From contig CM114271.1 in assembly GCA_050084515.1 (NCBI GenBank), forward strand, positions 41,540,001-41,604,000: DNA of 64,000 nt. The letters run 5' to 3'. This document shows positions 4,101-50,877 of this stretch, piece after piece. The notes below the pieces were generated by a model, which worked only from the letters and a program-made list of their open reading frames with translations, was not told the origin of the DNA and ran no database searches. Numbering within the stretch: position 1 is the first letter of the stretch; the number at the start of each line of letters is the position of its first letter. The DNA is from Blasia pusilla (taxonomy: Eukaryota). The translations under genes were made by a program, and so were the position numbers.

Positions 4101-4248
4101 CTTGCGATGTATGTTGTGTGGTTATGCCCGTGGTGCAGCCACTATGCTGTTATGTGATGGATGTTCAAGAGGATGGCATATGGCATGTTTGACGCCACCT
4201 CTCATTAGGGTTCCTCAGGGACGATGGATGTGTCACAAATATACATAG
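1188..4248 (+). pseudogene. pol of copy 1: reverse transcriptase, RNase H, integrase, PHD finger
   Basis: LPFGLKNAPAEFQR..YIDDIVVFS; HTDWS..YSSYEGECLA; HAHEELGHF; DFEGPLP..VLTD; CMLCG..MLLCDGCSRGWHMACLTPPLIRVPQGRWMC. Confidence 0.93.
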
Positions 4249-10385: not shown

Positions 10386-10442
10386 GTAGGTTAAACATGG
10401 TAGGTCAACAATAACCTATTTAAGAGTAAGTGCAATTTAGGG

Positions 10443-10647
<205 letters not shown>

Positions 10648-10699
10648 GCACACAAACACTCATGGAGCTTTATATTGGTGTAAGACATACTTCTATTTC

Positions 10700-10828
10700 A
10701 TTGGAGATATTTTGGTAGCCACTCGCCTATTATATTTGGATTTTGTGCTTGAATACTTAATCTTTTGTTCAATCTGTTTGATTAGTGACATAGTTTTATG
10801 TTGTGTAGCAATGTGTGTACGCATAACA
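10700..10828 (+). repeat. Diverged B-type terminal repeat of the split-repeat retroelement family
   Basis: Starts ATTGGAGATATTTTGGTA and ends TATGTTGTGTAGCAATGTGTGTACGCATAACA, matching the start and end of B. Confidence 0.65.
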
Positions 10829-13800
10829 TGATAGGGAGTGAAATTCGATGAAAAGGAAATCTTAGAACCACATGATGTTCCTCTACATCCAAATCATAGT
10901 GTAGTGGTGGAGGTTCATTGGATTTGGATTTCCCATGAATTCTAGACTCAAAGCTCACTTTCTTCTTGTTCCTTCTCCCTAAAAACATTTGCAATATTTC
11001 ATCCTTCTTCTTTTCTAGGATGGTGAATCCTGAACTTGCAATTCTCTATTGGAATTCTTATAATAGAGTAATCCCCTTGGACCATTATTTTATCATACCT
11101 TGTTAGGAGAGACATAATTAGAAGACATTCACAATGTGGATTTTTAAAGCATTAAAATATTTAATGAAATTTTTCTTATATTTTATAAACATCTTTGAGT
11201 GTCACCACTTATAGATAAATTTAAGATAATGTGCTCAAAATAATTGGTCTAATAGGGGATATAATGAATCTTTGGTGAAGGCCCTGTAGGGCCTTTGAAA
11301 AGGAGAAATTTTAATTTGAGGAATTTTTCAACATGAAGAATGTTTTAGTGTTTCCTTGTTTTTCATCCCATTCTTCTTCAAATATTTTCAAGGCCATAAT
11401 TGGCCTTGAAAAAGGAAAGGGAGTACAAACCCCCCCCCCCCCAACAATCGGCTAAACTCATCAACAACAAAATAATTTCAACAACACCTAGAGAGCTATG
11501 GCTACCATAATTGGGCCTCTAAGGCCGATGTCTCCCACAACTTGATCCCGCCACAAAATCCCATTAGTTTGGGCTCGTTGCAAAGCTGTGGAGATCCGTT
11601 GCTTACAATAAAGAATCGTAATAGCTAAGGAAAACCCATTTCTTGAATGGAGATGATAAGCACAATCCATAAGGAATGAGTTAAACCTCACCCATAGCCC
11701 CATACATCTCTATGGTTTGGGGGACTAATCAATGTCCATCATGAAGTCGACTATATAGTTGGGTCTTCTTTGCTGCCGCTACTCCTTGTAGACTATCCTT
11801 TTGGAAGAGAAGTGTATTTGGAGGAAATCAAGATAAGCCCACATATTGGATCAATATTTCTCCGAAAATAAAAAAATTGGAATGTGCTAGACGGAATTTA
11901 GAAGATAGTGGTGATCTAAACTTACTGATAAGAGACCTTGATGGTAATCATGAAAACAACTTAGACTAGAAAGAAAACAACCTAGAAGATGTAGATATGC
12001 AGAAAAAAATTTCATGATAGAGAAATGGGGTATCACGAAAGTTAGAGGGTGCTAACTTTGATATAATTTCAACATGAAATCCAATAGTGCTAACTTTCAT
12101 ATTGATTTTTTTATATCAATAAACTTTCCAAGCCAATTATTTGCACAAAATTTTCAATACAAAAATAACATCATAAATATATCAAATACATATCATATTC
12201 TATTTGATATCAAAATGATGCAAACCCATGATGGGGCCCTTTTTTCATGTACGCGAACCCCTCTATGATGAATTTAAGGAGAATATGTCTCGTCCTCTAC
12301 TACTCTCCTTGGAAAGGAACGAAAATGATAAAATAATGGATGATTGGATTCGAGAGCAAGAGGATGAGAAAAAAATGGAGAACTATGGATGAAGTGTATG
12401 ATGCTACCATATCAATGAGGTATGATCTTGATATTGTTGCAATATTAGGAGTTCAAAATTATTCCACTAAGCCAACTCCATCACCATTAGAGTGGCATTT
12501 GTACCTTTTGTGGAATTATTTAAGAGGATTTTTTAGAATATTTTGTGAAAAAAAAAAATGTGGCCTAATTTTTTCAATCGAGAATATAAATTGAAGAAAG
12601 TGTGGATTCCATCAAAGCCATGCTATTTTTTCAAAAAATCATTATCCAAATTGCTAAAAACTTGAATACATATTTTTATTTTAAGAAATTCAATTCCAAT
12701 AGTCACGCAATATCTAGACCTATAGATCTTGAGGAAAATCTAAGATGGGTTAAGATGTCTTGCTTGTCTCCCTAAATTTCTTATCAATCATCTCCATCTT
12801 CCTCAAATTCTTCTCATGCACGAAAATATGGGGCAAGATCCTAAGGTGAGTTGGGGAAAGTCAAGATGGGTAGAATCTATCGTAAGACTTACCCAAGTTA
12901 TCTTTAGGATTAGTCAGCCAAACATGGGATTACAAAAAGCAACCTACGTTTGGGTTGAGGACCAAAATGAACATGGTTGCATGCGAGGTTGCATGGAAAC
13001 AAACTTCTCTATCCTACGGATGGATACACCCAACGGGTCCTCTTCATGAGTTTTTTTGGTATCCCAATGCTCCACGTGGGCTCGAGAGGGAAGAACGCAT
13101 GTAGGATAAGATTAAGGGAGGCGTATAGGTATCAAATGGATGTGCTGGCTATAAGCCATCGTGTGCCCTATCCTAAGCCGGCATTTTCTGCAGAGCCTAC
13201 TACCTGCACAGGCTAGTGGCGGGCTTGATGCAAGCCTCTATGAGTGAAGCGCGGGCTTAGTGTGGGCTAAGAAATGGATGGCAAGAACAAGCAACAGGTT
13301 GCTAGACTAGGTGCATGCTTGCCAAACTTAGGTCTTTGTGGCATGCGCAGCAGGCCCGAGTTCGGGCCATAAATATATGGGCTTGCACGAGCATGTCCGT
13401 CCTAGGGAGAAACATAAGTCCGCGGACATGGACTTTTTCCATGTGCAACCTTGAAAATGAAGGGCCTGAGATAGATGCTTGGGAAAATATGGGGTACCTT
13501 GGAAAACCCTTGGGGAATACCTATATCTCTTGATTCTCTTCTTACTAGCCGAAGTCTTGAAATCAAGAGCTAGCCACATTTTGTGTTTGGCCATGATTAT
13601 GGTTGTGAGTTAAGATCTCATTCAAGACGTACCTTGAGGTATTAGCTATTGTGATCCGGCTAAGGGGAGAGAAACGTGGAGATTGGCCATGGGTTAATCC
13701 TTAAAGTATTCCTAGGAAGACAACATGTACCTCCAGAGACTGAATTGTAATTATCTCTTGACATCTTCTTATCTCTTGACTTAACTTACAAAATGGGCGA

Positions 13801-19890: not shown

Positions 19891-22800
19891 ATGGAGACTT
19901 GGGAGCTAGATATGGGCCCTAATTTGACAAGAGGAGAGCGGCGCCGGATACACCGGTTCCTTAGGAGTTATAGGAGCTATTTTGAATTTAGTATGCATGA
20001 TTTGGGTACGCTAAAGAGTCCAAGGATCCGCATTGAGTTGGCGAGTGACACGCCGATCTTCCGAAGACCCTACAGGTATAGTGACATGGAGAGGGCTCTG
20101 ATTCAGAGTAGAATCCAGGACTTGGTTGAAGCTTGACAAGTGGAGATGTCGCATGGAGAGTATGCATCTGCCATTATCATGCCCGCCAAGAAGGATGTGC
20201 ATGTCAACTCGACGGATAGGCGGATGTGTGGAGGTTACCGACCTATCAATCGACAGACGAAGTCCAATAGGTATACCATGCCCACCGTTGAGGAGATCTT
20301 TGATGCGATTGGGCATGCAAAGGTCTTCTCTTCATTGGATTTGCAAGTCGGATATCATCAGTTGCCTATCAAATTGGAGGAGAGGCAGAAGACGAAATTT
20401 TGGGGCATCGATCCTCACGGGAAGGATTGTTTGTATCAGTGGCGATTCTTACCATTCAGGTTAAAGAGCGCCCTGGATGAGTTTCAAAGGGTCATAGATA
20501 GGATCTTGGCAGGTCTCGATTTTGCAAGATGTTATATTGATGACATCGTAGTCTTTAGCAGCACGGTTGAGGAGCATGAGCGACATCTAGAGGAGGTGTT
20601 TCGACGATTGCAATTACATGGGGTGAAGCTACATCCAGGCAAGTGCAAGTTCTTCTACGATCAGATTGAGTACTTGGGTCATACGATATACCTTGGGGGG
20701 CTTGGTGTGCAACAAACGAAGGTAGAGGCTATTTCACGCATTCCACGCCGTACAGATGTGAGTCGAGTTTGTGAATTCATGGGATTGGCAAACTTCTATC
20801 GACGGTACGTCAAGGGTTTCAGTTTGATTGCGAAGCCGCTAACCTTGATGACCAAGGTGGATCAGGAGTGGCACTGGCGGGATGAGCAAGAGAGAGCGTT
20901 TCAAATGCTCAAGGACAGATTGACCTCCGTGCCCATATTGGAGAGCGATCAAGGGGCGTCCTTTACAGTTGCATAGCGATTGGAGCATGTTGGGGCTTGG
21001 AGCCATGCTCGCCTAGCATGATGATGATGGTAGAGAGTTTGTGGTGGCTTATGCTAGTTGCTCGAACAACGTCGCAGAGGCAAAGTATACCTCGTATGAG
21101 GGTGAGTGTTAGGCTGCACTATGGGCTGTTGCACATTTTAGATGTTATCTATTCAGAAATCCCTTTACCATCATTACTGATCATCAGCCACTTAAGTGGT
21201 TGATGAAGTCCGACAAGTTGACAGGGAAGCTTGCAAGGTGGGCTCTTTTGTTGCAAGAGTATGACTTCCAGATGGTGCATAGACCATGGACACTCAACCA
21301 GGATGCAGATGGTTTGAGCCGTAACCCATGCCTGAGTCAGCGAGATGCGATTGGAGCTCGTTGGCATGGTGAGAGTGATGAGGAGTTGGTGCCAGAATGG
21401 CATGCGTCAGCCTATTTGGGCTTGTTGGCTATGGAGAGCCAGATTTATGAGACTTCGATGGCGAGGTTTGATGGAGAGTCCTTAGATCCAGAGGTCGGTA
21501 AGGAGAGGACAGGTGGCCGAGACATTCACGACGATGGAGTGATCTTGGAGTACCTACGTACTGGCAGCGTCGCGAGCACAATGGATGCTAGAGAGCGGGA
21601 TCAGATCCTATAGTATGCCACACGGTTCTAGTGGGAGGGCACACATGCATTGCGAGTGTGGGAGGATGGTAGAATGCGTGTAGTGCCTCATCCTTCGCAG
21701 AGACCATGTTTGGTGCGTCATGCCCACGAGGAGTTGGATCATTTTGGAGTGAAGCGGGCGTACAGCTTGCTCAAGATTCAATATTGGTGGCAAGGCATGC
21801 AGACTAACGTTGAGCACTTTGTTGCGAGATTCATGGTGTGTGATCGAGTCCGAGCATCGTTCAATGCTCCAACTCCACAGTTGCATCCACTTCCGATCAT
21901 GGATTTAGGTTATAGATGGAGTTTGGATTTTGTAGGACCTTTGCCTTTGACGGAGCGCCATAGTCATTATGTGTTGGTGATGGTCAAGCACTTCTCAAAG
22001 TGGATAGAGTTGGTTGCATTGCCTGACAAAGCGAGTGAGGGAGTAGCGTATGACTTCCTAGATCAAGTTCTGAGTCATTACGGCGCACCAACAGAGGTGT
22101 TGACAGATCAGGGTACAGAGTTCCGCGGGGAATTTCATGTCTTGTATGATCAGGCACTGATCGACCACCGTACTACTTCGCGAGATCATCCTGAAGCGGA
22201 TGGACTAGAGGAGCGGGTTGTGCAGACGGTGAAGAGAGGACTGCGTAACTATGGCTTGAAGAGAGGTCACCTAGGAGATTGGGACCTTCAGTTGCCATGG
22301 TTGGCGATGGGATACAGATTCAGAAAGCACCCATCCTTAGCGCCTTTCTCACCCTACTTGTTGCTTTATGGCCGAGAGCCAGATTTACCTCCGACCATTC
22401 GTCGAGATGTTGGTGAGGTGTTGAACCTTGATGACCCTGATGTATGGATGTGAACATGTTTTCAGAGGGCTAAGTTGTTTCGGAGAGTGATGCCCATGGC
22501 GTTTGAGAAATTGGAGATTGCGCAACATTAGGATACGTTGAGGTATGTGACTATTTGGGGAGGTGGTTATCGACCTACTGTCCGGAGGTTTCATCAAGGA
22601 GACTATGTCTACTTGCAGCATACGGCACCTACGACGTTGGATGTGACTGCATGGTGCACCATCTTGAGAGTGCGTGAGGTTTTGCCATTCGATGTTCTCT
22701 TATTGGAGGGACGCACTGGTATGGTTTGGAAGGACCATGTGCGTAATTGTGCGCCATGTCATCTTCCGAACATTGACAATACAGTTGATCCAAGCTTAGC

Positions 22801-22954
22801 AATAGTTCCTACATGCTTGCGGTGTATGTTGTGTGGTTCAGCCCATGGTGCAGCCACTATGCTAGTCTGTGATAGGTGTTCGAGAGGAGGACATATGGCA
22901 TGTTTGACGCTACCTCTCACTAGGGTTCCTCAAGGACGATGGATGTGTCCTTGA
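19891..22954 (+). pseudogene. pol of copy 2: RT, RNase H, HHCC+DDE integrase, PHD finger
   Basis: YIDDIVVFS; TDHQPLKWL; HAHEELDHFG..CDRVR; SLDFVGPLP..LTDQGTEF..DGLEER; CMLCG..CDRCSRGGHMACL..VPQGRWMCP. Confidence 0.94.
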
Positions 22955-32100: not shown

Positions 32101-34103
32101 ACACCTACTTTGATTGGTGATGATAAACTGTTTTACGAAAACAGTGGGAATCCCTGTAAGAAAGGTAATCATAAGCACCTCTTGCATAAAACTACTACAC
32201 TAGGTTATGTTTGAGCCACTCATGCCAGATGGAGCGTTGGAGACAGTCCACATTATTGAAAACTTGTCTGCATGGTTTAGTATCTTCTCACCAGGTCACA
32301 GGACAATCATCAACAAAGTGCCTTGAAGCTTGCCTAACAAGGTACAATTAGGACTGTTTACCTTCCACAGTTGCTAGTCATTTACAGACTTTACGACCAG
32401 TTGTGTAAGAATTAAGATGCAGAATACTCTCTAAGTTTTGCAGTCTGTTCAACTCCAAATAGATGTCCTCTATAGTAAAACCTATTTACTTTTCATGGCA
32501 TCTACTGCAATTTCTGACTGCAATCAGAAGTTGATTCGCAAATCTATTGGCTGATGTGTTTAGAAGTCACGAATAAAAAGTCTCTACTTTGGATGTCTTC
32601 CTGGTTGTTGCATACCATCATCACTATCTAGAAGCTGATGCAGATGAAACCTTCCGGTTAAAAGATGGTGGGTGGGGGTGGACATTTGAGACAGTGGGAC
32701 GTACAGTTGCCATGGTTTCCTATGAGGTATCACTTCAGTCACCAAACATTTTGGTATCATTTTTGCGATACCTTTTACTCTATAGGAGAGAGTAAGACTT
32801 ACCTACAACTATTCCATGTGATATGACAGGTGTTGACCCTTATGACCCAGATGTATGGGTGCAAGCATGTTATCAGATGGCGGACATTTTTCGTAGAGTT
32901 ATGCCTACACTGAAGAAATTCTCTCGCTATTTTGTTGCTGCACCGTTTCATTGTCTTGAACTGCCTGCAAGTATCTTTCTTGATAAAAAATATTCTTAGC
33001 TAATAGTATGCCAGATGCCCATCAATGTTAAACTAGAATTTTTACAGAAGGTCTACTGTCTGGCGACCATCTTCGACATAACAAGAAGCCAACCTTCCTC
33101 ATAGAACGTATTCTGTTCGACTCGAACTCATCTTTACTGTGGAGCCAAAAAGACACATTTGCTGGATACGGAACTAGAATTGCGATGTGATGTGGACGAA
33201 ATGATAGGCATCCCAGATTCAATAACTGACCTGCAAGTCGTTTTATTGGTACCAAATGTTATCACGTCTTCATTCTTTAGCTGAACCATGCTCTCCGGAG
33301 ACGAATTTACGGGTTTTGAGGAAACCTCTTTATTAATAAAGGTACCAAACTTTGAGAGGTCCTTCAGGTGTATATTGCTGCGGGGCCCTAAATCATGGCT
33401 CGCTTCAGCAAGACATTCAACAACGGCTGGCTCCACAATTATCTCTGCGTGAACTCTGGATATTGTTTTGTCTGTCTGGACTGTTATACTGCAGTCTGCG
33501 AACAAAATTGGCATTATACAACTCCGACGGCTTCTGGTTTTGACTATGAACTGAAGAAAGTGCCTCGTAACGTGCGTAGCGAGTTGCAAAACGAAACTTA
33601 AGAAAACTCCACTTGAGAGAGTCTATGACACGTTGGGCCTTACTTGGAGGGAAACGGACCACGATTCTGGTCAAAAAAGTAGGATTACATATGAACATAT
33701 GAACATATGAACTTTACGATGTTAGCGTACCTTTTCGGCCCACCGTATATGTGCCAGGAGCTGTGAAGTAGTAGCTTCCATTGCCTGCAAAGTCTAGCCA
33801 TTGGGAACCAGGAGTCAATTCCCGGGCTCCAAAACCATCAGTCTTGTCTACATGCAATCTCTTGGGCAAAAATCGAATAAATGACTACCGAAACAGAGTT
33901 AATCAAAGCATTCCAACGTCCACATCCTTACCCCCAGTGCTGATCTCCTAAGGGAATCGAGAGTAAGACGCCTACATTTAGTTGGCCCCAGAACATTGAG
34001 CCTATATTTTACACGGAGCAATCCATCAGAAATCTCATCGGGAAAGAGATGCAGGCGGCGTACCAGTAACGACAGATTCCTCGAATGTCACGAACCACAC
34101 CAT
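26158..34103 (-). CDS. NBS1: Nibrin/NBS1 (MRN complex; FHA + BRCT + C-terminal Mre11-binding motif), multi-exon
   Basis: Exons 34103-34064 (MVWFVTFEESVVTG), 33784-33731 (YYFTAPGTYTVGRK), 33495-33231 (DKTISRVHAEI..KDLSKFGTFIN..ITFGT, FHA), ~31969-31880, ~31557-31429 (CTHLLVEE..WLQ, BRCT), ~31107-31056, ~29737-29617, ~29507-29154, ~28970-28110 (NFKRFKR), ~27759-27699 (GNSFSSLVPFAKEPY), ~26659-26560 (KQEKKRK..EELF) and ~26229-26158. Internal boundaries are approximate. Confidence 0.9.
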
Positions 34104-38247: not shown

Positions 38248-39870
38248 TGGCATGCGCATATACATCGCTACACAATTCACATAGTTGGTCATCTCTACAC
38301 AACACTAATTTTCCCAACACATGGGTAGATCCACACACACACACTTTGCACTCACGTACGCATATACGCCAAGACCACATAACCCTCCCCTAATTGGCAA
38401 TTGGGTCCCCCTAATGCCAGATCACACATCTCACATCCACCCGACATGAATTAGTACCCTATACACATCTACCAACGATGGTGATGTCATGCGTGTAATA
38501 TGCTAATATGTGCTCACCTTCAGATCCATCTCATCTATCTCAACCAAGAGATATCGATGTATCCACACGTCGGCCTACAACACTACAACTGACCTCCATG
38601 TTAATCCCTCCAAAAAGGTCTAACACTCTCAATTACAAATCCTCCTCCAAACGCTACCACACAACAAATGTGGTATCCAAGGAGATCAAGTCCCCACTCC
38701 AAGAGCACAATCGTCACATGACTTTGTCTTCTCTTCTATAAAGGCATATCTTCACGCTTGCCTTACGAGCTCCTCTACACTCCTTTGCAAGTCGATGCTT
38801 GTAGGGACCCAAAAATAGTGAAGAGGTCTTCGCACCATAGGAAGAGACATGTATACCCACTATGCCATGTCTCTCCATGGAACTATCTGCTACAAGGATG
38901 TCCTCTACATAGGTGCTCTTTTTTTAATAACTCCCTCGTCATCTACTCACAACTCGTAAATGCTACCAACATGGTTACAACATCACATCATGGACCACCA
39001 ATACACCTTGCAAACCACATAGGTAAATGGCTCACCCACCCATCACACAATTTCCACCCTTGTCGACAGGAAAATGTCTCTTGCCAAAAACTGAAGGATG
39101 AAACCAAGGGCGTACATCACCATACTCCCCACAACACATCGTATGAATCTATCAATAATGTAATCACACGACTACGCACCATCGCACCATTTGAAGCATA
39201 CTTTAATTGGAGCTTGAAAAGTAGCTCCTATTAAGTCATATATTGTATGGAGGACATGCCCCCAATAGAGGTTTGTATTTGAAAGGGACAAGACTCAATG
39301 TTGGCTTTCCATAACGTCAATGCTAAACAAGCCGCCTTCCTTAACATCAAGAGTCAAGTAGGAAGTATTGTCTTTGATACACCATACCTGTGGGACTAAC
39401 CATGCAGAACATCCCGCTCTTGTTGTCCAATAACACTACATGAGATGTCACAATGGATTGCTCTATTGTTGGTCTAGCTAGGTGGCATGTCTTCCAACTT
39501 AGTCGTTATAGCCTACCATAACTCAATTGGGAATATCTTGAGCACTTGCTTTGAGGATAGGTCCACCACACCTCAACAACTATCTCTAAAGAAGAGGAAA
39601 TTACCTCTCCACTCTCACATAGCATGGCGGCCAACCGGAACACCTTGTTGGTCTAACTCCCACTGCCACCAAGTCCATGGTAGAAACAAATAGAGTTTGG
39701 CTTACCTTAGTGGCCACCTCCTCTTGCATATCAATCTCTAGTGTTGCCGAAGCATACGTTCAGTATGACACACTCTCACTGTTGATGTACATCCAAACAC
39801 ACTCACGTTATTCTAGTCTGGGTCAATCAACTTTCCAATTGCCCGAGTCTTTGCCTCAGGCTATTCATCA
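38248..39870 (-). mobile_element. Degenerate relative of the split-repeat retroelement (protease remnant, purine tract, single B)
   Basis: Minus strand VVLLDNKSGMFCMVSPTG..FLLDS at ~39350-39440 is homologous to 18497-18590; GGGGAGGG tract at ~38383-38390; B-like end TGTGTAGCGATGTATATGCGCATGCCA at 38248. Confidence 0.6.
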
Positions 39871-40694
39871 AGCTGGGGGCTAGTATTCTCGCAGGAGAGA
39901 GGAAGAGAGGAGAGAAAGAGAGGAAGAGAGGAGAGTCTCTCTTAAAAAAAAGGGCAGAATCCGCCTCCTCTCTTCAAAACTTTTTGACATTATTGAAATT
40001 TTTGTTTGCTTTCAAATTCATGAAATCTTTAGAAGAGAGTAGCAAGTGGAGCACATTCGGGCCTAAAGTAACCTTCTTTTTCCATGCTTGGAAAAAGAAG
40101 TAGACATCATAAGACCACTACAAACATCCTTCCATCACTCTCCATGTGAGCCCAAATTTCTTCACATTGCCTATCAAAACCAACTCTATAGGAAACCGAG
40201 CAGAGGGGTATTATTGTTGGAGGACCATCGGTAGATAATTTGACCAAAAGTAGCAATTTCATCTCAATGAAAGGTTAAAATAAAGACTCTAACTATGCTC
40301 TCAATAGACTCATGTGCCCTTCAAGGTTTAACTTCTGTGAAGATGTGGTTGACATTATGGATTGTTGACTCTTCTTGCAAGGCATTAAATATCCCATCCG
40401 ATCAATACTCATCCATGAGGGGGTTTTCCACAACAGAACAAATCATTCATCAATGATGGTAGTCGAAGACTTTCATGACATCATTGGATGATGTTGGCTC
40501 ATGAATGGGTGCATAAAGTATACCATGGACTGCTGTGCGTTTGACAAATTGGTTTCATCATTTTCTTAGCCATTGAGAAATGTATGCATCAAGAAGAAAA
40601 TGTGATCAAACTGAGACGACAATTGAACCAAAAGTTTGATAGCTGTCAGGAGCAAAGAGGAACTGATGCACCCATGTCCCTTCATTCACACCCT

Positions 40695-43600
40695 AAATGT
40701 CGGAATCTGACAGTTTGCATCCCTTCCAACCCATCAGAATCCGACACGTTGCAACTCTTGCAACCCATTGGAATCCGATGGGTTGCATCCCTTGCAAGCA
40801 AGCACACCACAACAAAAGAATGATCTTGACAAGTGATTCCATTCCGCCCAACACCCCATAAGAATCCGACAGGTTTGGAATCCGACATGAGAATCCGATA
40901 GGTAGTAGGAATCCAACACGTTTATGAAATACCGTGTTAGAGAATAACGAGGCAACGAGGCAAAAGTGAAGAAGCCTACCAAAATGCCTGAAAAGTTGGA
41001 CTAACAGGAAAAAAGTGGGATCACTCAAGCTTGCAACTAGTTGGATTCCGACGGCTTACAACTTATCGCAATATTTTAAACCCCTTTTAAGCAACCTGTC
41101 GGATTCCGACAGGTTGGCTGCTTGAGTGATCCCACTCTTTTTGTAAAATTTTGCTGAATTGTTTTTTTGTTCTTGTCGATTGTGTTGGTCTATCTACTTG
41201 AGGCTGTTTATTTTGCAACCCGTCGGATTCCGACATGTTGGCTGCTTGAGTGATCCCACTCTTTTCCTGTTAGTCCAACTTTTCAAGCATTCTGGTAGGC
41301 TTCTTCACTTTTGCCTCTGAGATACCGTATTAGAGAATAACGAGATAATGGGGGAACGAGGTAAAAGTGAAGAAGCCTGCCAGAATGCCTGAAAAGTTGG
41401 ACTAACAAGAAAAGAGTGGGATCACTCAGCAGCCAACCTGTTGGAATCCGACGAGTTGCAAAATAAACAACCTCGAGTAGATAGACCAACACAATCGACA
41501 CGAACGAAAAACAATTCAGCAAAAGTTTACAGAAAGAGTGAGATCACTCAAGCAGCCAACTTGTCGGAATCCGACAGGTTGCCTGAAAGGGGTTTAAAAT
41601 ATTGCGATAAGTTGCAAGCGTCGGAATCCGACTAGTTGCAAAATAAACAACCTCGAGTAGATAGACCAACACAATCAACAAAAAAAAAAACAATTCAACA
41701 AAAGTTTACAAAAACCATTATGGTTCAAAAACTTCTTATCCTTTATTACATCTGAGGAAAGCTCGGAAATGTACATTTGATCTAGTCTATGATTTCTTCA
41801 GCCTCGTCATCTACAAATTTACTCATAACTCTCCTAGGTTCTTGTACAAAAGTAATGTCTTGGGATACAAGTGGCTTCTCTGGCCAATTGTAGATGGGGA
41901 TCATAAATGTTGGGGAATTCGAGAGCCTTGCCCCCCTTAGGTACACCATAACGGTCCCATGTAACATGATTTGAGTCCCAACGCCTTCCTCGAAGTAAAT
42001 CTTGTATGCTATGCAAGGTGACACCTATGTGCTCTGTCCTTGGAAAGCACTAAATCCCTACTCCAAAATGCTTCAGTCAAGCTGGGTCCAATAAATCTTT
42101 GAACTCACTTGTCATCGTTCGATAGCTCTTCCAGAATTACTGTCGGCTTTGCCCTCCCGATTTTTGGAATAGTAGGAAGTGACGATGATGTCACTATCAA
42201 TGGTGGTTCTAGAACTGGAGCTGTTGGCTTTGGAGGAGAGTTGTAGACTCCCACTAGCCTCTCGTAATCCGCCTTTCCCTCTTTGCAAAGGTCAAAAAGT
42301 TCTGGCCTTCCCTCAAGGCATAGAATGTTCCTACCACTATACCATGCGCCTCTAATACTCGCCCCTAATAGGCCCACTAAATCAAAGACCAAGTCACCCG
42401 GCCTTGAGCAGAGCTCGATGAGCGTTTGCATCAAAGCAGGTGACTTGTCCCATCCTGCATGTAAATTCCCAAGGGGCAATTGTAGAGACTATCTAAGCTG
42501 TACCCATCAGAGCATGGACCGGTTGCACGGAATATAGGCTGGAGGGAGTTCACGTGCAACTTGTCGGACTTCAACGGGTTGCAAGGGACCCAGGCTAGAT
42601 GGACACCTTGCAATCCGTCGGGGTCCGACATGTTGCAGGAACTGTGCGGGATCTCTCCCAGCAACCTGTCGGACTCCGACGGGTTGCAGCAGACCACGCA
42701 GAACTTGCACCATAACGGTCCACCGTCGTAAAACCGGTTACCCATCGGACAACAATGGTTGAGTCCAACGGCTCTGAAAGTATATAAGGACCAGTTTTGA
42801 GGCTTTTCACTTTCCCATTCTACACTTTTCTACGCTACTTTCAGCTCCCCCGTTCGCACGACTACGAAAAGTGATTTCAAGTTACTCGGAAATTTTTACG
42901 GTTGGTTGTTGTCTCTTCATTTGGGGGTTACAATAGTTGGTGACGACGGTTTGAGTTGAATCAATTCTTTTCAGAGGAAACGACGATTTAAGTGAAATCC
43001 CCTTACGCAGCGTTCAATTCTCCACTTATTTCAGGATGACTCGAAAAAAATCCAAGCCAGCAAGGTCGAGAGCTTCTTGCCTGAGTCCGACATAACTCCC
43101 ATCTTCTGTTACGAACAAATGCCTTCAGATGTACAACGAGAGGAAATCGAGCAGCGCGAGCGTGAAACCATAATGAGGAAGTATAAAATATTGCCGAAAC
43201 TTGCATTAGAGAAGCTCGTGAAGCAAGAGGAGGAGCGAGAAACAAAATTGCTCGCAGATGCGGAGAAGGCCAAGAAGAAATGCATGGAGGCGGAGATAAA
43301 GCTGAAGAAGAGGTAGGACACCGCCTTCCGGAAAGCCGAACTTGCAAAAGCCATGCAGGAAAAGGCGGTCGCTGTAGAAGAAGAGCCCTCCCAGTGACCC
43401 ACCGAGAGTGTGGAAATGGAGAATGTATCATCCATGAGGTTGAGTGGTCCAATGCAGGAGACCAACAGTGACGAGCTTCCAGAGATCAACGAGGAAGTTG
43501 TTAAGACCCCAAGTGTCGAGATCATGAAGATCTCGAAAGGAGAAGGAGAGGAGTCTTCGACATCTCAGAAGCTTGTTGAAGAATTTGAGCTTTTCAAAAT

Positions 43601-46600
43601 TGAAGAGTTTCTAGTAGACTTGTCAGATGAGGCTCCAAAGTAGCCTGATGGACTTGACATAGACCCAATTTTTGAGCAGGTAAGCATTGTTCTTCAGTTC
43701 TCTCCGCACTGCATTAGTGCCCGTCGTTAGGAAAATGTGAATTGACTGTGTGACATTTGAGCAGGTGGTGAAGCAGCTGGCTCTGATGGATGGCCCAAAT
43801 GCCCCGAGGATTCCTCTATGCTCACTCCAAATGATGGAATATGTAAGAGAAATCCAATCAGAGGGAGACATTGACAAGTTGAAGCAATCCATGGCGATAG
43901 CTTCATACGTTGATAGCTTCCCACCACTTTATGTTCAACCGTATGATGAGCATGGAACCCAGGCTTTGCTAACGGAGGAAGACCTAGAGAGTCTCGATGC
44001 TTTTTGGAGGTTGAGGGATATGGAGTTCTGGAAGGCAATGGCAGGAACCCAATACAAGTGGATGCTGAACTTGTACTTTTTCATCTGGGATGGAAACCAC
44101 CAATTCAAGGCTTGGTTGCACCTTGCAGTGGAGTGTCCAAACTCCCTTGAGGCTCACTTCTGTGTAAGGGCAGTGGTCCTTCATCCCTACCCGAATCACA
44201 TGGCCACAATGAAAATGGCCATGCACTCCATGAACACGTAAGTATCCTTGAACTTTTCTTCCGGAAAATGAACCGGTTTCAATAGCTAACATCGTTAACA
44301 ATAGCTACAACCCGTCGGAAGGCAATAGGTTGTGAGAGGAAGAACTTGTTGCTCGTCTTTGCAATTCGTGGAACTCTCTTGGCTCTCTATTTTATTGCCT
44401 GGAAACACATCAGAGACCAACGGGTTGCATAATCTTAATTGGGGCAATCCCAGTAGAATAGGAATTGCAACCCGTCGGAGTCTGACGGGTTGCTGAGTCA
44501 GGAGAGAGTGTGGTTTGAGTGGGCTTTCATGCAACCTGTCAGACTCCGACGGATTGCATGATCTTTACAAAATGAGTCTTGCTTTGGTTGTCTGTACAAC
44601 ACGTTGGTCTCTGACGGATTGCAAAGCGATGTAAACCCAGACCTTCCGTATAGAACATTCAACCCGTTGGACTCCGACGTGTTGGAAAACACTCAAACAA
44701 GCCGCTTTTCAACTCCACATACAACCCGTTGGACTCTGACGGGTTGCAAAATCCTCAAATCAGGGTCTTTCAACTGCACATGCAACCCGTCTGAGTCCAA
44801 CGGGTTGCAGAGCCAATCAAACTCGCATGTTGGCATTTTAAAATTAGCAACCTGTCGGAGTTTGACGGGTTGCAAGTGAAAAAACTAGCGTCAGAATCCT
44901 AAACTTTGGATGGCTTTCGAACGCGTTGGTTTCCGACGGGTTAAATTTTTGAATTTACTGGACTCGAGGTGCAACTCGACGGAGTCCAACGGGTTGCAAC
45001 CCAGCCCTGATGGACCCGGATGCAAACCATCAATTTCTGTCGGATTGCACATAAGAGGATTTTGGAGCAACCCGTCCGATTCCGACGGGTTGCAAATAGC
45101 TGTTTTTTTGTTTGTCTGCTTCCAACCCGTCTGAAACCGATGAGTTGTAGTTGTAAATTTTCTTACTCTTCGTTGATGTTTGCAGCATTGTGTCCGAAGG
45201 GAATGTTACCCATCGCTTGATCCAAGAATGAGACCGAGTGAGGAAGGTGCTTACAACGCACCCGTCGCAATACAAGGGATTCCTAGGAGAGGAGTTGGTG
45301 GATGAGATGCTCGCAAAAGGAGCCCAAATCAAAAAGAAGACTTGGGCCAACACATTCATTTCCCAAGATGCAGATGTTACAATACTTTTCTGGTCAAAAA
45401 TCTAGGCGGCGGAAAGAAGCGCAACATTGGAGCTCGAGCGGAGAGGGAATGTATCGGCTTCTGAGAGAGCCAGGTTCATTCAAGCTACGGTGTCTACGTC
45501 CACCTATTACCTTGCGAGCAAGATGCAGCGGTACATCGCCATCCTGAACCTCGAGCTCGGGCCAGACTTCTACAAAGAGTTGAAGGCCATTATCTAGAGG
45601 CATCAAAAGAGGCATGAAAATCCCTAGGCACATAATGTAGAGAAGGTGTCATTGGATCGAGTTCACCGGTTTGCCCTTTCAGGGATTTCCAAGGTGGATC
45701 CAAGTGATGAAGATCAGTCTAGAGGGAGGTAGAGAAAAAATTGGCACACCATCCCTCAGGGGTTTCGGACCCAGTCATTTCCCAGTGGATGTGAGAGTGG
45801 TCCTTCTGGGATGCCTTGCGCTTGCTGGGAAAGTCCATGGTTGAATGCATTGAAGCCAACCTGTAGAGAATTCAGCCGGTTCCCGAGGAGGCTAGCCTGG
45901 AATCGGCAAAGGAGTTCGAGTTATGGTTAAATGGCATCCGAGATAAGCTGGCAAAGAACCCCGGGTTCAAGACGATGTTCAAGAACCAGATTTTGCCACG
46001 GGGGGATGTCGACGAGGAGATTGGCGACCCAAAGAAATGGGACTTCGCCAAAAAGAAGAAGGAGCTTCAAGATCAAGCTGCCAATTCATCCCGCCATCGA
46101 GATGCGCAAAGGATGGTGTTCAGGTTCTTGACCTCCTCTGTGAACATAGGAACATAGAGGAAGTTTCCGGCAGCGCTCAAGCTATGGGAAAATACTCTAG
46201 ATGGCGAAGGATTCTCCCTATACGACGTGGAAATGGCCCTCGAGATGAGCCCTGGGGAAATGCTCAACTGTCCAATCTGGTTGGACTTCAACAATCCCGA
46301 CGAGCTCACTGACCCAGCAATGCGAGACTTGTATCATACGCTAGCTGCTAGCGAGGAAGACATCCCAAATATCTTCAAGACCGAGGAGTACTTCGAAGGA
46401 GATGCCAAGGCACAAGCAACTAAGGCGGCGGAGATTTTGTCAGAGACAGTAACGAAAAAAGACAAGTCGACTACGGGGTTGAAACCCAAGGTAAAGGCCC
46501 CCAAACCGTCCAAAGTAGGATCATCAAGATGAGAAGGACGGATATGGGAGGCCCCAAAATTGAATCCAATGGATTCCAATGTCATAGAGACCCCAACAAG

Positions 46601-47600
46601 CAGACATCCTACACGAGAAAAGCGAAAGAGGGAGACACCCGGTTCCTCCGAGGGGGGAGGGACAAGAATGTTTTCTATACTTCCTCATCGTTGGGGAAGC
46701 ATAGGGATTTAGCAGCAAAAATCACCATTTTGTTGCAATAGACATCGCTGCTGGAAGAATTGGAGAAGTTCTCAGCACACGAGTCCACGCCTGCCTTGGA
46801 GAAGTTGACACTATTGGGACGTGAGCTTCTGCAAAGCGGCCATGCCCCATCGACCATCAATGGGGTCCATGAGGAGGTTGTAGTTGACCTCCTCATCGCT
46901 GATCTACCGTCGGGGCTCAGATTGTGGGCAAAAATTTCACACGACACAGTTTTGGATTTGAACACTCCATTCACATATGACCAGATCGGGAAGATGTTCT
47001 CCTTTGCCAACGCGTATCTTAGTGACACCTGATGTTTCCTAGTTTTCATCGGAGGAAGCAAGGATGGGCTCTGCAACTTGCAATGCATGAAGCAATCATT
47101 GAAGTGGAAAACCGTGCAATCTTGGGTAGTGAAGAATGACTACCCACTAAAATCGGCTTCAAACCAAACCTTGGTTAGTTCGATAACTTAAACCCGCAAT
47201 TGATTTTGTTCTTTCCTGCAACCCGTCGGACTCCGACGGGTTGCAAAACCCAGCCTAGAAAGGGAGTGTGTCCTGCAACCCGTTGGACTCCGACAGGTTG
47301 CAAAACACACGCCAGAGTGTGAGTGGGTCCTGCAACCGGTCGGACTCCGACGGGTTGCAAAACCCAACCCCGAAAGGTTGTGTTTCCTGCAACTCGTTGG
47401 ACTCCGACGGATTGCAGCACCCACCCTAATAGGCCTTACCATAACCCCTGCAACCGGTTAGTCTCTGACGGGTTGTATATGGGCAACACTTTGGGTATCC
47501 ACGGATGCTGGGCAAAGCGTCTTAATGCTCAAAGACCCCTAAAAGAAAATTGCCTCGGTGACATCTTTCAATTGCAACCTGTCGGATTCTGTCGGGTTGC
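40695..47600. repeat. Clusters of a 29-bp palindromic repeat TGCAACCCGTCGGA(N)TCCGACGGGTTGCA
   Basis: Roughly 30-40 degenerate copies by eye, in clusters at ~40695-41640, ~42500-42775, ~44305-45150 and ~47217-47600; perfect copy at 47217-47245. Confidence 0.92.
41782..42479 (-). pseudogene. Inverted paralogous 3' fragment of the amino-methyltransferase-like gene
   Basis: DKSPALMQTLIELCSRPGDLVFDLVGLLGASIRGAWYSGRNILCLE, then a GTGAGT donor at ~42108 and a probable further exon at ~42027-41782. Confidence 0.75.
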
Positions 47601-48169
47601 TCTTGGAAGACCTCTTCCTCCCATCGATTCTAAGCTTATTTTTAGTGGTGTTGTTTGCAGATCAATACTCCTACGTATATTGTTTTGTTAAATCGGAGCA
47701 CAGGCTCGAGGTTTTCGAGGTAAAGGATCATGTTGATCCAGGTTCAGATGGATACACTTTGAACAACCTGTCGAATTCACCCACTGGAATCATTGTCGAG
47801 AAAGGGGTGGCTATGCTTGGAGGGAGGGAAAAATCACCCGCTCACCTTCAGACATTGATGGAGTTGTGTTCGAGGCTAGATGATTTGGTGCTAGATTTGG
47901 TTGGTCTTTCTGGGGCAAATGTTAGAGTTGCTTGGCAGAGTGGGCGAAACATTCTCTGCCTTGAGGCAAGGAACACCTTGTTTGCACTTTTCCGGGAGGC
48001 AAAGTCATACTATGAGAGGATGATTGGCGTTTACAAGTCGCTTGCACGAGTAACGGAACTTGCATTTGAGCCACTGGTTATGCCACCATCCTCAATACCA
48101 ATTATCCCAAAAATGGGAAGGACAAGGCCAACGGTGATTCTCAAGGAGCTGTTGGATGATCATGAGTGA
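43036..48169 (+). pseudogene. Coiled-coil + ParB/Srx-like + beta-class N6A/N4C DNA methyltransferase-like gene with spliceosomal introns
   Basis: Exon ~43036-44237 with FFIWDGNHQFKAW (ParB-like DGxxR); intron ~44238-45185; exon ~45186-47173 with VDLLIADLPSG (DPPY-like motif IV) and LSDT*CFLVF; intron ~47174-47660; exon 47661-~48165 with EKSPAHLQTLMELCSRLDDLVLDLVGLSG..GRNILCLE (motif X-I). Many stop codons. Confidence 0.7.
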
Positions 48170-48395
48170 GTGTTGGTGCCTTGGATTTGAAGTGTTTTGG
48201 ACTTGAGATGATGTTGTCATGAAAGAGTTTGGCTACCATCAGTGATGAGTGTTTTGTTTTGTTGTGGAAAATCCCATCTCATGGATGAGTATTGATCAGA
48301 TGGCATATTTAATGCCTTTTGCATGAAGAGTCAAAAGTCCATAATGTCAACCAAATATTCTGAGAAGTTAAACCTTGAAGGGCACAAGAGTCTAT

Positions 48396-50110
48396 TGTGA
48401 TACCCACAATTTTGTAATTTTGAGATTTATACCTTTTGATTCAAGGAATGAAGACTCTATGAAGTAAAGGTTGTATATACAAGACTGATTTAGATATTAT
48501 GTTTGTGTATTGGAAGAATGAGTAATATTGAAATGGATCACGAAGCTCCTAGGACAAGGCAGAGAGGTAGAACATCAAGGATTTGCCTTAGAGGAGAGGG
48601 AAAAGCAGTAACAAAGTCTAAGGACTGAGAGCAAATCTTGGAAAAGACAACGAAGCCTTATTAAGAACCTGTTTACAAAGTGCTTCGCTCTTGAACGAAG
48701 CACGATGAAGAAGAAGAGGAAGAAGTACTTCGCTCATCAAGAAAGCACAAAGAACGAAGCACTTGGAACAAGAGCGAAAAACTCAACGCTTCGTCTTCAG
48801 ACCAAGAGGAAGAACTTCGTCCTCAAGGGAAGAAGAAGAAGTTCAGACTTCCCAACGAAGCTAAGACCCGACGTGATTTCAAGTGGCACACCGTTAGAAC
48901 AGTTAGGCTAGGAGGAGGTGTGACTTTTTGGACCAGATAGGAAGTTAGGACAGTTATGCCCAACGGATTCATAGAGATCATAGGAAAAGATAAGAGAACC
49001 GTAGATCAAGGTCGTTACAAACTCTCAATAGACACTAGATTCCTAAGAGACGCTTTAGATCTTTGGACCTACTACTACCTCGCAAGATATTTAAGGAGCA
49101 TGAAAGTAGCTATCATCATCATTCTTTCACAAAGTCTTTATGCTGTAGGAATGGTGTGAGCAAGGGAGTAGTACCCTCTCAAGCTTGTATACACTTTGAA
49201 GCTTTCTCATTCTTGATGGAGTAGTAAAGAACTCATTTCTTCATTTTGATGTGCGATGCATATGTCTGAAAATTCTTTTTGGGTTTGTAGAGTGAAGAGT
49301 GGATCAAGAGAACACTTTCATCATTAGAATAATCAACTTTGAGTTGTAAGAAATCTTTTCAATAGAGAGTAGCCTGCCTAGACGGATTGAGTTCTGAAAG
49401 TAGGAGAAGCCAGCTTCTTGTTGAGGTCTTTGTGAGGTTCTTTGATGTTGAGTAAAGATCTACCTAAGCATGAATGCAATTCCACTTGAGAGAATCGAGG
49501 AAAAAAATCTTGGTACTAATAGAGAGAAGAATACCATGATAAGTGATTGAATCCGAATTATACACACTTAACTACAACTATTGCAAGATAAATACCATCT
49601 TCAACTCTCTTTTCACATAATCATGATCCTCTTGGGGATCAAACTCATTAAATTACTGTAAAAAGACCAATTTGTATACTTCTTGTACATTACATATAGT
49701 TACAAAATTTTGGCGCCGCTGCCGGGGATCATAAGATTTGCTGAAAAGGGAGAGGCTGATGGGTAACCCCGGGCCAAGGGAAGAAGCCTCATCGTCTAGG
49801 AGACCCAACCATCTAGTTCTCACCGAAGATCATCTCCTATCTCTAGCTATCCCCCTAAGACAATGGGATGGAAGAAGATAGTAATATTTTTGTTGCATTA
49901 GTACTAGAGAAGATAAAACAATTAATTAGTATTGTCAAAGAATCCGTTGCCGAACGATGCTTTGCCCATGAACGTTATTTATACTTGGTGATGACCCGAT
50001 ACTTCTGTTTATGGGAGGAAAACCTGGCAGTTAGATTGAGGGCACATTCACACTCCCATAGGAATTAGGAAGACCCAACTTTCTCTCCATGGATCGATAC
50101 CCTGTAGCAG
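48396..50110 (+). mobile_element. Athila-like LTR retrotransposon fragment (5' LTR ~48396-49704, PBS, truncated start of internal region)
   Basis: TG start interrupts the inverted-repeat homology; ...TTACA is followed by TGGCGCCGCTGCCGGGGA at 49711-49728 (Athila-type tRNA-Asp PBS). Confidence 0.75.
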
Positions 50111-50239
50111 TCTTGGGTTCGAAAATGTCAAAAAGTTGTGAAGAGAGGTTGTGGATTCCACCCTCTTTTTTTTTTATAAGAGAGACTCTCCTCTCTTCCT
50201 CTCCTCTCTTACTTTCTCCTGCCAGAATACAAGCCCCCA

Positions 50240-50877
50240 AGCTTGTGCTCGTCATATTTTTGAATGAAGCGTATGCGTTTCCACCTCAAGAATTCGGCTC
50301 GATTCTTTGCAATCCTGCAGAGCGGATCACGCACCCTACATTCTACTGCTCTTGCCTTCTGAGTGCTATTAAGTACTACTCTCCGCCCCTGTCCAATATC
50401 TGAAGGCTTTCTCCTGGCCTTGCACTTTGGAACAACCAAATCGATTGGGCATTTGTGCACTGTCTTCAAATGAAGATTGAATCTTTTCTTGCTGGCAAGT
50501 GGAGATGTGTACTGATTGTATTGCAAGCATTCCCATTTTTTGAGTGCAACAATACACGCATAGTAAACATTCAAGCCTCGCCACTCAAATGCGTTCCCAG
50601 ACGTGCAATATTTATGTACCTTGGTCGGGGCATGTGCACTTGCATCTTGGGAAGGTCTTTTTGAGGCCGGTGTACTCTTTGGAGAGAAATGTTCACGAGC
50701 CAAGTCTTTCCGTAACTCCGGTGCAGATGAATGGAATTTTTTTGGTTGTAACGTTATGGATTGTTGTCTCTGGGCTGCTTGCCTAGTGACCACAGTGAGC
50801 TCGATGAGTACAACTGGATGGCTGGTTTTTGAGGAAATGCTTAATCGTTTCTTCTTACCAGCTCTATTTCTGCGCAT
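50240..50877 (-). pseudogene. Basic ORF with a degenerate C2H2-like zinc finger, truncated by the adjacent element
   Basis: YACIVALKKWEC..LASKKRFNLHLKTVHKC; the ORF runs into the element terminus at 50238. Confidence 0.35.

Follow-up and report, generated by a model that had tools for sequence, protein, structure and literature searches.

A many-copy mobile element of Blasia pusilla with a gene for a methyltransferase-like protein that carries altered catalytic motifs

We analysed a 64,000-nucleotide (nt) stretch of the Blasia pusilla genome (GenBank assembly GCA_050084515.1, contig CM114271.1, positions 41,540,001 to 41,604,000 of the forward strand), referred to here as a whole as the window. 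The window is eukaryotic and transposon-rich, with Ty3/gypsy reverse transcriptase, integrase and PHD frames at 1-23 kb. At about 43.1-48.17 kb we traced one gene on the + strand, with four exons and three GT..AG introns, between inverted arms. We think it fairly probable that a many-copy element is represented here by a dead, rearranged copy, and that its four-exon gene specified a non-catalytic accessory factor derived from a methylase.

The predicted gene product, of about 1,200 residues, has four parts: a lysine/glutamate (K/E)-rich N-terminus, an exon-2 domain that is possibly ParB/Srx-like, a conserved middle of about 450 residues and a C-terminal permuted methyltransferase domain. A first-pass annotation, made from the DNA letters, had described a three-exon gene for a ParB-methyltransferase fusion beginning at 43036. 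Its introns are supported by splice signals, by their phases and by contigs of other copies from DNA runs, which have one extra base after 47663 that brings exon 4 into phase with a GT..AG intron. The exons number four, however, an 85-nt first intron having been overlooked, and the ATG at 43036 lies in a different frame from exon 1 and is closed by a stop after 20 codons. The peptides quoted in that annotation all lie where it had placed them, EKSPAHLQTLMELCSRLDDLVLDLVGLSG..GRNILCLE being in exon 4, the last. Its putative N-terminal coiled coil corresponds to a K/E-rich stretch. Five contigs from a run presumed to be RNA matched the region, all at <95% identity and located on 45186-45612, the palindromes and the flank; among these five we found no RNA evidence for the introns.

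By profile comparison, the end of exon 3 and exon 4 together constitute one complete beta-class amino-methyltransferase-like domain (motif IV before motif I), split by an intron. The reference profile for this comparison was seeded by E. coli YhdJ: 74 viral loci were fetched and 41 were picked (one per near-identical group, with a match over most of the query), of which 40 were used, one being removed for an internal stop. Aligned to these 40 viral YhdJ-like methylases with hhalign, the C half of the domain placed query positions 1-132 onto template columns 169-327 (score 45.5, probability 89.9, pairwise expectation value (E) 1.7e-6). The N half, represented by the window and two Riccia sequences described below, placed positions 7-141 onto columns 32-170 (score 37.2, probability 69.8, E 4.1e-5). 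Controls fell far below these scores: reversed queries reached 16, and 30 column shuffles peaked at 25.3 for the C half and 19.3 for the N half. The two halves are collinear on the profile and meet exactly at the exon 3/exon 4 junction, so that the beta-class motif order proposed in the first-pass annotation is borne out by matches well above shuffles. The alignment sets VDLLIADLPSG over SvDlIi-DPPYni, CFLVFIGG over the strand following a helix, QYSYVYCFVKSE over -E-Il---K, and EKSPAHLQTLMELCSRLDDLVLDLVGLSG over HPTqKP--Lle-lI----gd-VLDPF-GSGTT.

Database searches point to the same assignment. Pfam PF01555 matched both exon-4 copies present in the window at profile positions 165-216 of 221, with E values of 0.012 for the inverted copy and 0.075-0.08 for exon 4 itself, and a PHROGs family named 'DNA methyltransferase' was matched at E 0.036. 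A single-sequence search of the PDB with exon 4 gave M.RsrI at E 0.086, which improved to 0.0036 with a two-copy exon-4 profile; DpnA and MboIIA were also among the PDB matches listed for that profile, each at the equivalent C-terminal region. With exon 4, tblastn gave no match in 50,697 phage records at E 10, and a JGI metagenome scan with the exon-4 alignment gave 133 pattern matches, none of which was confirmed. The best PDB matches of the N-half profile were phage adaptor proteins (E 0.011), which we regard as chance.

We also co-folded residues 344-488 of the Riccia sorocarpa protein (the N half) with window exon 4 using ESMFold2. The co-fold score was 0.70 in all three runs, against a best control of 0.02, and solved complexes attain 0.70 in 51 of 78 cases, mismatched pairs in 2 of 108. 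Contact agreement between runs was at least 64%, and the predicted local distance difference test (pLDDT) score of the partner was at least 47. The contacts of lowest error join DLLL, just before DLP, with DLVL, just before DLVGLSG, and MVIF with VYCF. In the sheet of class-I methyltransferases, beta4-beta1 and beta5-beta7 are neighbouring strands; the modelled contacts match these neighbours, which shows, at the level of a prediction, a likeness of fold.

When the read-through of 46742-48166 was compared by phmmer with 1.84 billion representatives, only two proteins matched at E <=0.001, both hypothetical and both from the liverwort genus Riccia: one of 488 amino acids from R. sorocarpa (E 4.4e-6) and one of 305 amino acids from R. 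fluitans (E 1e-4). Along all of exon 3 the Riccia proteins are collinear with the window gene, three further segments giving BLASTP E values of 3e-14, 3e-5 and 6e-7. A word-based protein search with one of them (P0003) found no relatives besides itself, and an ESM Atlas search with the Riccia middle region gave nothing usable (best score 0.76, all template modelling (TM) scores <0.35). Both annotated Riccia proteins end a few codons past the position of intron 3; judged by this alignment, their gene models probably lack the last exon and possibly upstream exons too.

The catalytic motifs of the domain are altered in all of these sequences. The D, L and P of motif IV are invariant in three of three sequences (DLPS in the window, DLPT and DLPK in Riccia); all three lack the aromatic of (D/S)PP(Y/F), and none conforms to the catalytic (D/N/S)PP(Y/F/W). 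Motif I, which follows motif IV in the gene, reads DLVGLSG or DLVGLLG in the two exon-4 copies of the window, neither of which has the S-adenosylmethionine (SAM) loop FxGxG. The second of these copies, exon 4', is a diverged, inverted form of the last exon, with 56% amino-acid identity to exon 4 and 66.8% nucleotide identity over 358 nt. Between the two, the proportions of nonsynonymous and synonymous differences (pN and pS) are 0.23 and 0.70 and the corresponding rate ratio (dN/dS) is about 0.13 (113 codons; dS is saturated), which indicates that the methylase-like domain has been under purifying selection while carrying the altered motifs. Because the motif changes are common to the Riccia homologues and dN/dS is 0.13, the degeneracy is a conserved family trait and not a product of decay in this copy. 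The first-pass annotation was right that the motifs are degenerate and that the enzyme may be catalytically dead, but the degeneracy belongs to the family. As judged from these motifs, the domain is most likely a non-catalytic, DNA-binding pseudo-methylase.

We consider it unlikely that the protein, despite its unusual motifs, actively methylates cytosine at N4 or adenine at N6, marking the CpG palindromes described below or the genome at large. Such an enzyme would account for a domain that is complete, collinear and under purifying selection and for the CpG-richness of the palindromes, and Marchantia DN4MT1 is, in the part of its description available, a precedent for plant use of a bacterial-type N4-methylcytosine (4mC) enzyme at CG. 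However, motif IV is without the second proline's partner and the aromatic in three of three sequences (S, T or K instead), motif I is without Pro-Phe and the first Gly in two of two copies, and no specific similarity to the TSPPY enzymes was detected. The first-pass suggestion that the gene is a vehicle or relative of plant 4mC/N6-methyladenine (6mA) enzymes is likewise unsupported, its motif being DLP(S/T/K) and not TSPPY, and its only relatives found being the two from Riccia.

The gene copy in the window is a dead pseudogene, as its description in the first-pass annotation as a decayed reading frame had indicated. Twelve stops interrupt its reading frame (at 43314, 43395, 43641, 45229, 45403, 45595, 45625, 45730, 46155, 46530, 46710 and 47030), nine in exon 3 and three in exon 1, and five of the twelve sit in segments whose frame is set by homology to the Riccia proteins. 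Exon 3 in addition contains at least two frameshifts, and one nucleotide is deleted after 47663. At 45231, 45595 and 46156, nearly all other copies have a different letter in the contigs of the DNA runs, and the corresponding three stops are therefore private to this copy.

Other copies are numerous. When contigs of three DNA runs were placed on 45186-48600 (3.4 kb) at >=80% identity, 671, 280 and 327 contigs matched, at 80-100% identity. In one of these runs, X1, 62 contigs were at 99% or more, 110 at 95-99%, 239 at 90-95% and 260 under 90%. The differences among copies are mainly C>T and G>A. These many dispersed copies support the view, already taken in the first-pass annotation, that the gene is transposon-borne: it belongs to a mobile many-copy element with inverted arms, of which the window holds a rearranged copy. 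The depth of X1 contigs is uneven, at about 6-48 over 45642-47123, 222-421 over the palindrome units of 47124-47351 and 83-322 over the arm at 48150-48491. Over the first 450 nt of exon 3 (45186-45641) it is 150-609, and in all three DNA runs this segment has about 10x the contig depth of the remaining gene body; it may also be part of a derivative that is more abundant, or of another family.

The inverted arms pair over 190 nt at 86.8% identity. Contigs of other copies continue past 48397, and within the window this continuation matches nothing but the minus strand of 40282-40298. Since other copies continue there as the inverse of 40282-40298, the right arm of the window copy is broken at that point, which is not the end of the family. 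A second, outer inverted pair of about 125 nt, with pieces 90-97% identical by local alignment, may or may not belong to the element. No target-site duplication of 3 or 9 bp was found at 40299/48400, a boundary that is not the family end, and the flanks of the outer pair are unlike. Nor was a transposase-like frame found between the arms or in six large nearby open reading frames, an absence that is weak in a rearranged copy. Between the broken right arm and the outer segment, 48492-48600 is a very abundant repeat with a summed depth of about 550-2060; the abundant repeat in 48400-50117 is probably an insertion into the right arm of the element. Exon 4' is strongly constrained (dN/dS as above), yet the non-coding arms farther out share 87% identity. 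Exon 4' may be what is left of a second paralogue on the opposite strand, or a fragment from a diverged copy of a subfamily.

The element also contains arrays of a 25-nt, CpG-rich palindrome, CAACCCGTCGGA-N-TCCGACGGGTTG, which has 19 matches in the window at <=3 mismatches where 0 are expected. None of the 19 falls outside 40761-47599: they occupy the left arm, introns 2 and 3 and a stretch next to exon 4'. Contig joints indicate that the number of palindrome units varies between copies. The matches depart from the consensus 40 times in all; the eight CpG positions account for 29 of these mismatches, and C>T or G>A changes for 26 of the 29, a pattern that reads as the signature of 5-methylcytosine (5mC) deamination.

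It is quite unlikely, in our view, that the palindrome arrays and arms form an abundant repeat family of their own, which spread into a host gene family with dispersed members, the gene then not being cargo of an element. Contig depth, at 80-550 over the arrays and arms, does exceed the value of about 5-50 over most of the gene body, as such an invasion would predict. However, every one of the 19 motif matches in 64 kb is inside the unit, in both large introns, the left arm and beside exon 4', and the gene body too is present in many diverged copies. In families with non-autonomous derivatives, ends and subterminal repeats are usually higher in copy number, and an excess of this kind is what such a family would show.

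The remaining question of domain content concerns exon 2, which the first-pass annotation had called ParB-like. Exon 2 had no match to E 10 in Pfam (PF02195, the second profile proposed for checking, included), PHROGs or NCBIfam, and a sequence search of the PDB was also empty; of the two Pfam profiles proposed, only PF01555 supported its assignment, and did so below its cut-off. For a direct comparison, 25 YnaK-type ParB loci were fetched and 23 used, 13 of them genuine ParB-methylase fusions (DPPY or SPPY). Against the 23 YnaK-type ParB_N sequences, exon 2 scored 15.9 in hhalign, within the range of 30 shuffles (maximum 18.7). Word-based protein searches at several length classes found no homologues of exon 2, a JGI metagenome scan gave 46 pattern matches, none confirmed, and a single-sequence AlphaFold model was of low confidence (pLDDT 41.8).

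In the ESM Atlas, the nearest entries to exon 2 were unnamed clusters; 8 of 30 hits were in clusters with DUF3723 (31% of members) and 2 of 30 in a cluster with ParB_N (11% of members), which we take as a lead only. DUF3723 is a fungal Starship accessory gene, and we found no literature joining it with ParB. ParB-type nucleases have a DGxHR motif after a beta-strand; exon 2 reads IWDGNHQ, with Gln at the expected Arg (this copy only). On these comparisons ParB homology of exon 2 is not supported, though the context considered below lends it some plausibility.

These results bear on the idea that the protein is itself a mobility enzyme, in which a ParB/Srx-type nuclease of exon 2 would cut the palindromes while the dead methylase recognises sequence. 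The gene is the sole one recognisable between the inverted arms, DGNHQ resembles DGxHR, and the language-model search gave the weak lead to ParB_N. Against this, all ParB tests were negative or unusable, the rearranged copy may have lost a transposase gene, and we know of no ParB-type transposase, so that we hold this idea to be very unlikely. Most improbable of all is that the stretch is left over from the integration of a viral methylase gene, from a giant virus or another. Several YhdJ-like methylases of the reference profile do come from giant-virus contigs, but three introns of spliceosomal type interrupt the gene, inverted arms flank it, diverged contigs number in the hundreds, and no other viral gene lies in the window.

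Returning to the methylase-derived accessory factor, the following scheme would fit the observations. Without the aromatic residue that stacks on a flipped base, and without the first glycine of the SAM loop, the domain would no longer methylate. The protein would act as an element-encoded, DNA-binding accessory factor that uses the dead methylase fold, and perhaps exon 2, with the palindrome arrays of its own element as the likely target. Its purpose might be assembly of the transposition complex or the countering of host 5mC silencing, and transposase could be supplied in trans by fuller copies or by another element. Possible analogues are METTL14, a dead methylase retained as a binding subunit, VANC of VANDAL elements and the Plavaka-associated genes of red algae.

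Several points weigh against this explanation. The window copy has neither a transposase gene nor a target-site duplication, its right arm is broken, and a second, outer inverted pair is present. The arrays are 10-20x more abundant than the gene body and could be an independent repeat invading the introns. Loss of catalysis is deduced from motifs alone, and binding of the palindromes by the protein is put forward, by analogy, as a proposal only. The PF01555 matches, at 13-16 bits, are under the Pfam gathering cut-off of 26.7 and cover the C-terminal quarter of the profile only. For the N half alone, no methylase was found in the PDB, and its comparison with the 13 ParB-methylase fusions gave an hhalign score of 17.0 and no match. 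The co-fold mixed two species and may have passed through memory of solved methylases. AlphaFold gave low-confidence models of exon 2 and of the read-through methylase region alike (pLDDT 36.9 for the latter, from a 4-row alignment).

A more far-reaching possibility, tentative and in our judgement rather unlikely, is that bryophyte transposons use a dead amino-methyltransferase, perhaps with a ParB-like partner, to read their own CpG palindromes and so to shield or reprogram themselves against host cytosine methylation. This would amount to a system of self-recognition and anti-silencing independent of VANC and parallel to the red-algal Plavaka cassette, and the strongly constrained second exon-4 copy in the opposite arm could in that case be what is left of a paralogous partner, comparable to the METTL3-METTL14 pair.

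Coordinates of the element and its gene are collected in the table below. Elsewhere in the window, two Ty3/gypsy copies (3772-4248 and 22532-22954, + strand) have a PHD finger after the integrase and not the usual chromodomain; that at 22532-22954 matches Pfam PHD at E 2.8e-10. About 7 kb away from the element is an FHA-domain exon (33137-33622, - strand; Pfam E 3e-10) that seems to belong to a host gene, and at 10430-10831 (+ strand) there is a long (GA)n-type microsatellite, one frame of which is a run of RE repeats.

Table. Features of the element copy and its gene, in window coordinates
Feature	Position	Strand	Remarks
Outer inverted-repeat segment, left	39869-39997		partner 50118-50245; membership of the element uncertain
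Left inverted arm	40282-40484		40299-40484 pairs with 48211-48400; 40282-40298 pairs with the sequence of other copies past 48397
Left-arm block of tandem and inverted repeats	40726-41690		5 palindrome motif matches at 40761-41581
Exon 4' (diverged inverted copy of the last exon)	42103-42540	-	127 open codons; followed by palindromes of an intron-3-like stretch, 42556-42690
Exon 1	43119-43679	+	K/E-rich; 3 in-frame stops; start uncertain, first Met of the open frame at 43119
Intron 1	43680-43764	+	85 nt, GTAAGC..CAG, phase 0; read from sequence
Exon 2	43765-44237	+	157 stop-free codons; contains IWDGNHQFKAW (WDGNHQFKAW 44086-44115); candidate ParB/Srx-like domain
Intron 2	44238-45185	+	GTAAGT..GCAG, phase 2; array of about 62-nt palindrome units at 44402-45151
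Exon 3	45186-47173	+	middle region homologous to Riccia proteins, and N half of the methylase-like domain
Motif IV-like strand and loop	46883-46915	+	VDLLIADLPSG (DLPS 46901-46912); aligned to DPPY of the methylase profile
Intron 3	47174-47660	+	GTTAGT..GCAG, phase 0 after counting the base missing past 47663; 4 x 57-nt palindrome units (47214-47440), more motif copies as far as 47599
Exon 4	47661-48169	+	C half of the methylase-like domain; terminal stop 48167-48169
Motif I-like	47894-47914	+	DLVGLSG, aligned to VLDPF-GSG; replaces DPFxGSG
Right inverted arm	48211-48400		interrupted at about 48397 in this copy
Outer inverted-repeat segment, right	50118-50245		partner 39869-39997; membership of the element uncertain

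Few transposons have DNA- or chromatin-modifying accessory genes, among them fungal elements with TET/JBP, the Arabidopsis VANDALs with VANC and red-algal elements with PAG2 and PAG3. The family described here would place a bacterial-type amino-methylase fold on an element of the land-plant lineage, with the fold kept and the catalytic signature lost. Its palindromes, which carry the scars of 5mC deamination, make it a case for the study of transposon self-recognition and of the interplay with host methylation. It also illustrates that PF01555-like genes of bryophytes are not all related to the Marchantia sperm 4mC enzyme. In the literature on PF01555 in transposable elements and on Plavaka, supplementary lists excepted, we found no land-plant report of this family.

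With bacterial and phage beta-class PF01555 enzymes (M.RsrI, DpnA, MboIIA, YhdJ) the domain shares collinearity over its whole length and the placing of motif IV before motif I. It differs from them in having DLP(S/T/K) for (D/S)PP(Y/F) and DLVGLxG for DPFxGSG, an intron within the domain and about 900 additional N-terminal residues. With the 13 phage ParB-methylase fusions it would share the proposed order of a ParB-like part followed by a beta-class methylase, and the C half matches the profile of these fusions (score 39.3, probability 67.8); unlike them, exon 2 scores within its shuffles, the N half finds no match, and about 450 residues lie between the two parts.

Among eukaryotes, Marchantia DN4MT1 is described, in the portion of its report available, as an active host 4mC enzyme of bacterial type with a TSPPY motif, acting at CG, and the corresponding portion for bdelloid rotifer N4CMT describes an active 4mC enzyme encoded by a single host gene with a chromodomain. 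MpDN4MT1a/b and N4CMT resemble the window gene, so far as these portions go, in being eukaryotic, intron-containing and of the permuted bacterial amino-methylase type; theirs are single or duplicated host genes, whereas the window gene belongs to a many-copy element. No similarity to MpDN4MT1 or N4CMT above background was found in the phmmer scan of 1.84 billion representatives. For eukaryotes, the accessible part of Iyer et al. names haptophytes, chlorophytes and chytrids as having clades of ParB-linked methylases; the window family is not among the clades given there.

The closest described parallel, compared here by description, is with the Plavaka-associated genes of red algae. In the red alga Bostrychia, according to the part of the preprint available, giant Plavaka (EnSpm/CACTA) elements carry PAG2 (PF01555 and SET) and PAG3 (a ParB-like N-terminus and a 2-oxoglutarate (2OG) oxygenase); inverted-repeat tandem arrays adjoin PAG3, and a DDE transposase is adjacent (doi 10.1101/2025.02.11.637652). 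Its authors suggest that the element carrying PAG3 is itself bound and modified by the protein, and they note that PAG genes hop among transposon superfamilies (doi 10.1101/2025.02.11.637652). VANC of VANDAL transposons, which the same preprint mentions, binds short motifs arrayed in its own element; for VANC, as for METTL14, we draw a functional analogy only and claim no homology. Plavaka transposases are placed in streptophyte algae and moss by the available part of a 2026 Spirogyra paper.

As far as the available description of PAG2 and PAG3 extends, the red algae have two separate proteins, whereas here there is one large protein with degenerate methylase motifs in a plant-like host. No SET or oxygenase domain was matched in any exon or in the Riccia proteins, unlike PAG2 and PAG3, and the window copy has no transposase, whereas the red-algal genes adjoin a DDE transposase. 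Alike in both, on the same description, are a transposon-borne accessory gene, a PF01555-type domain and inverted-repeat tandem arrays beside the gene. The Blasia pusilla gene is in this respect new within a known theme, in which a DNA-modification enzyme has given rise to an accessory gene of a transposon.

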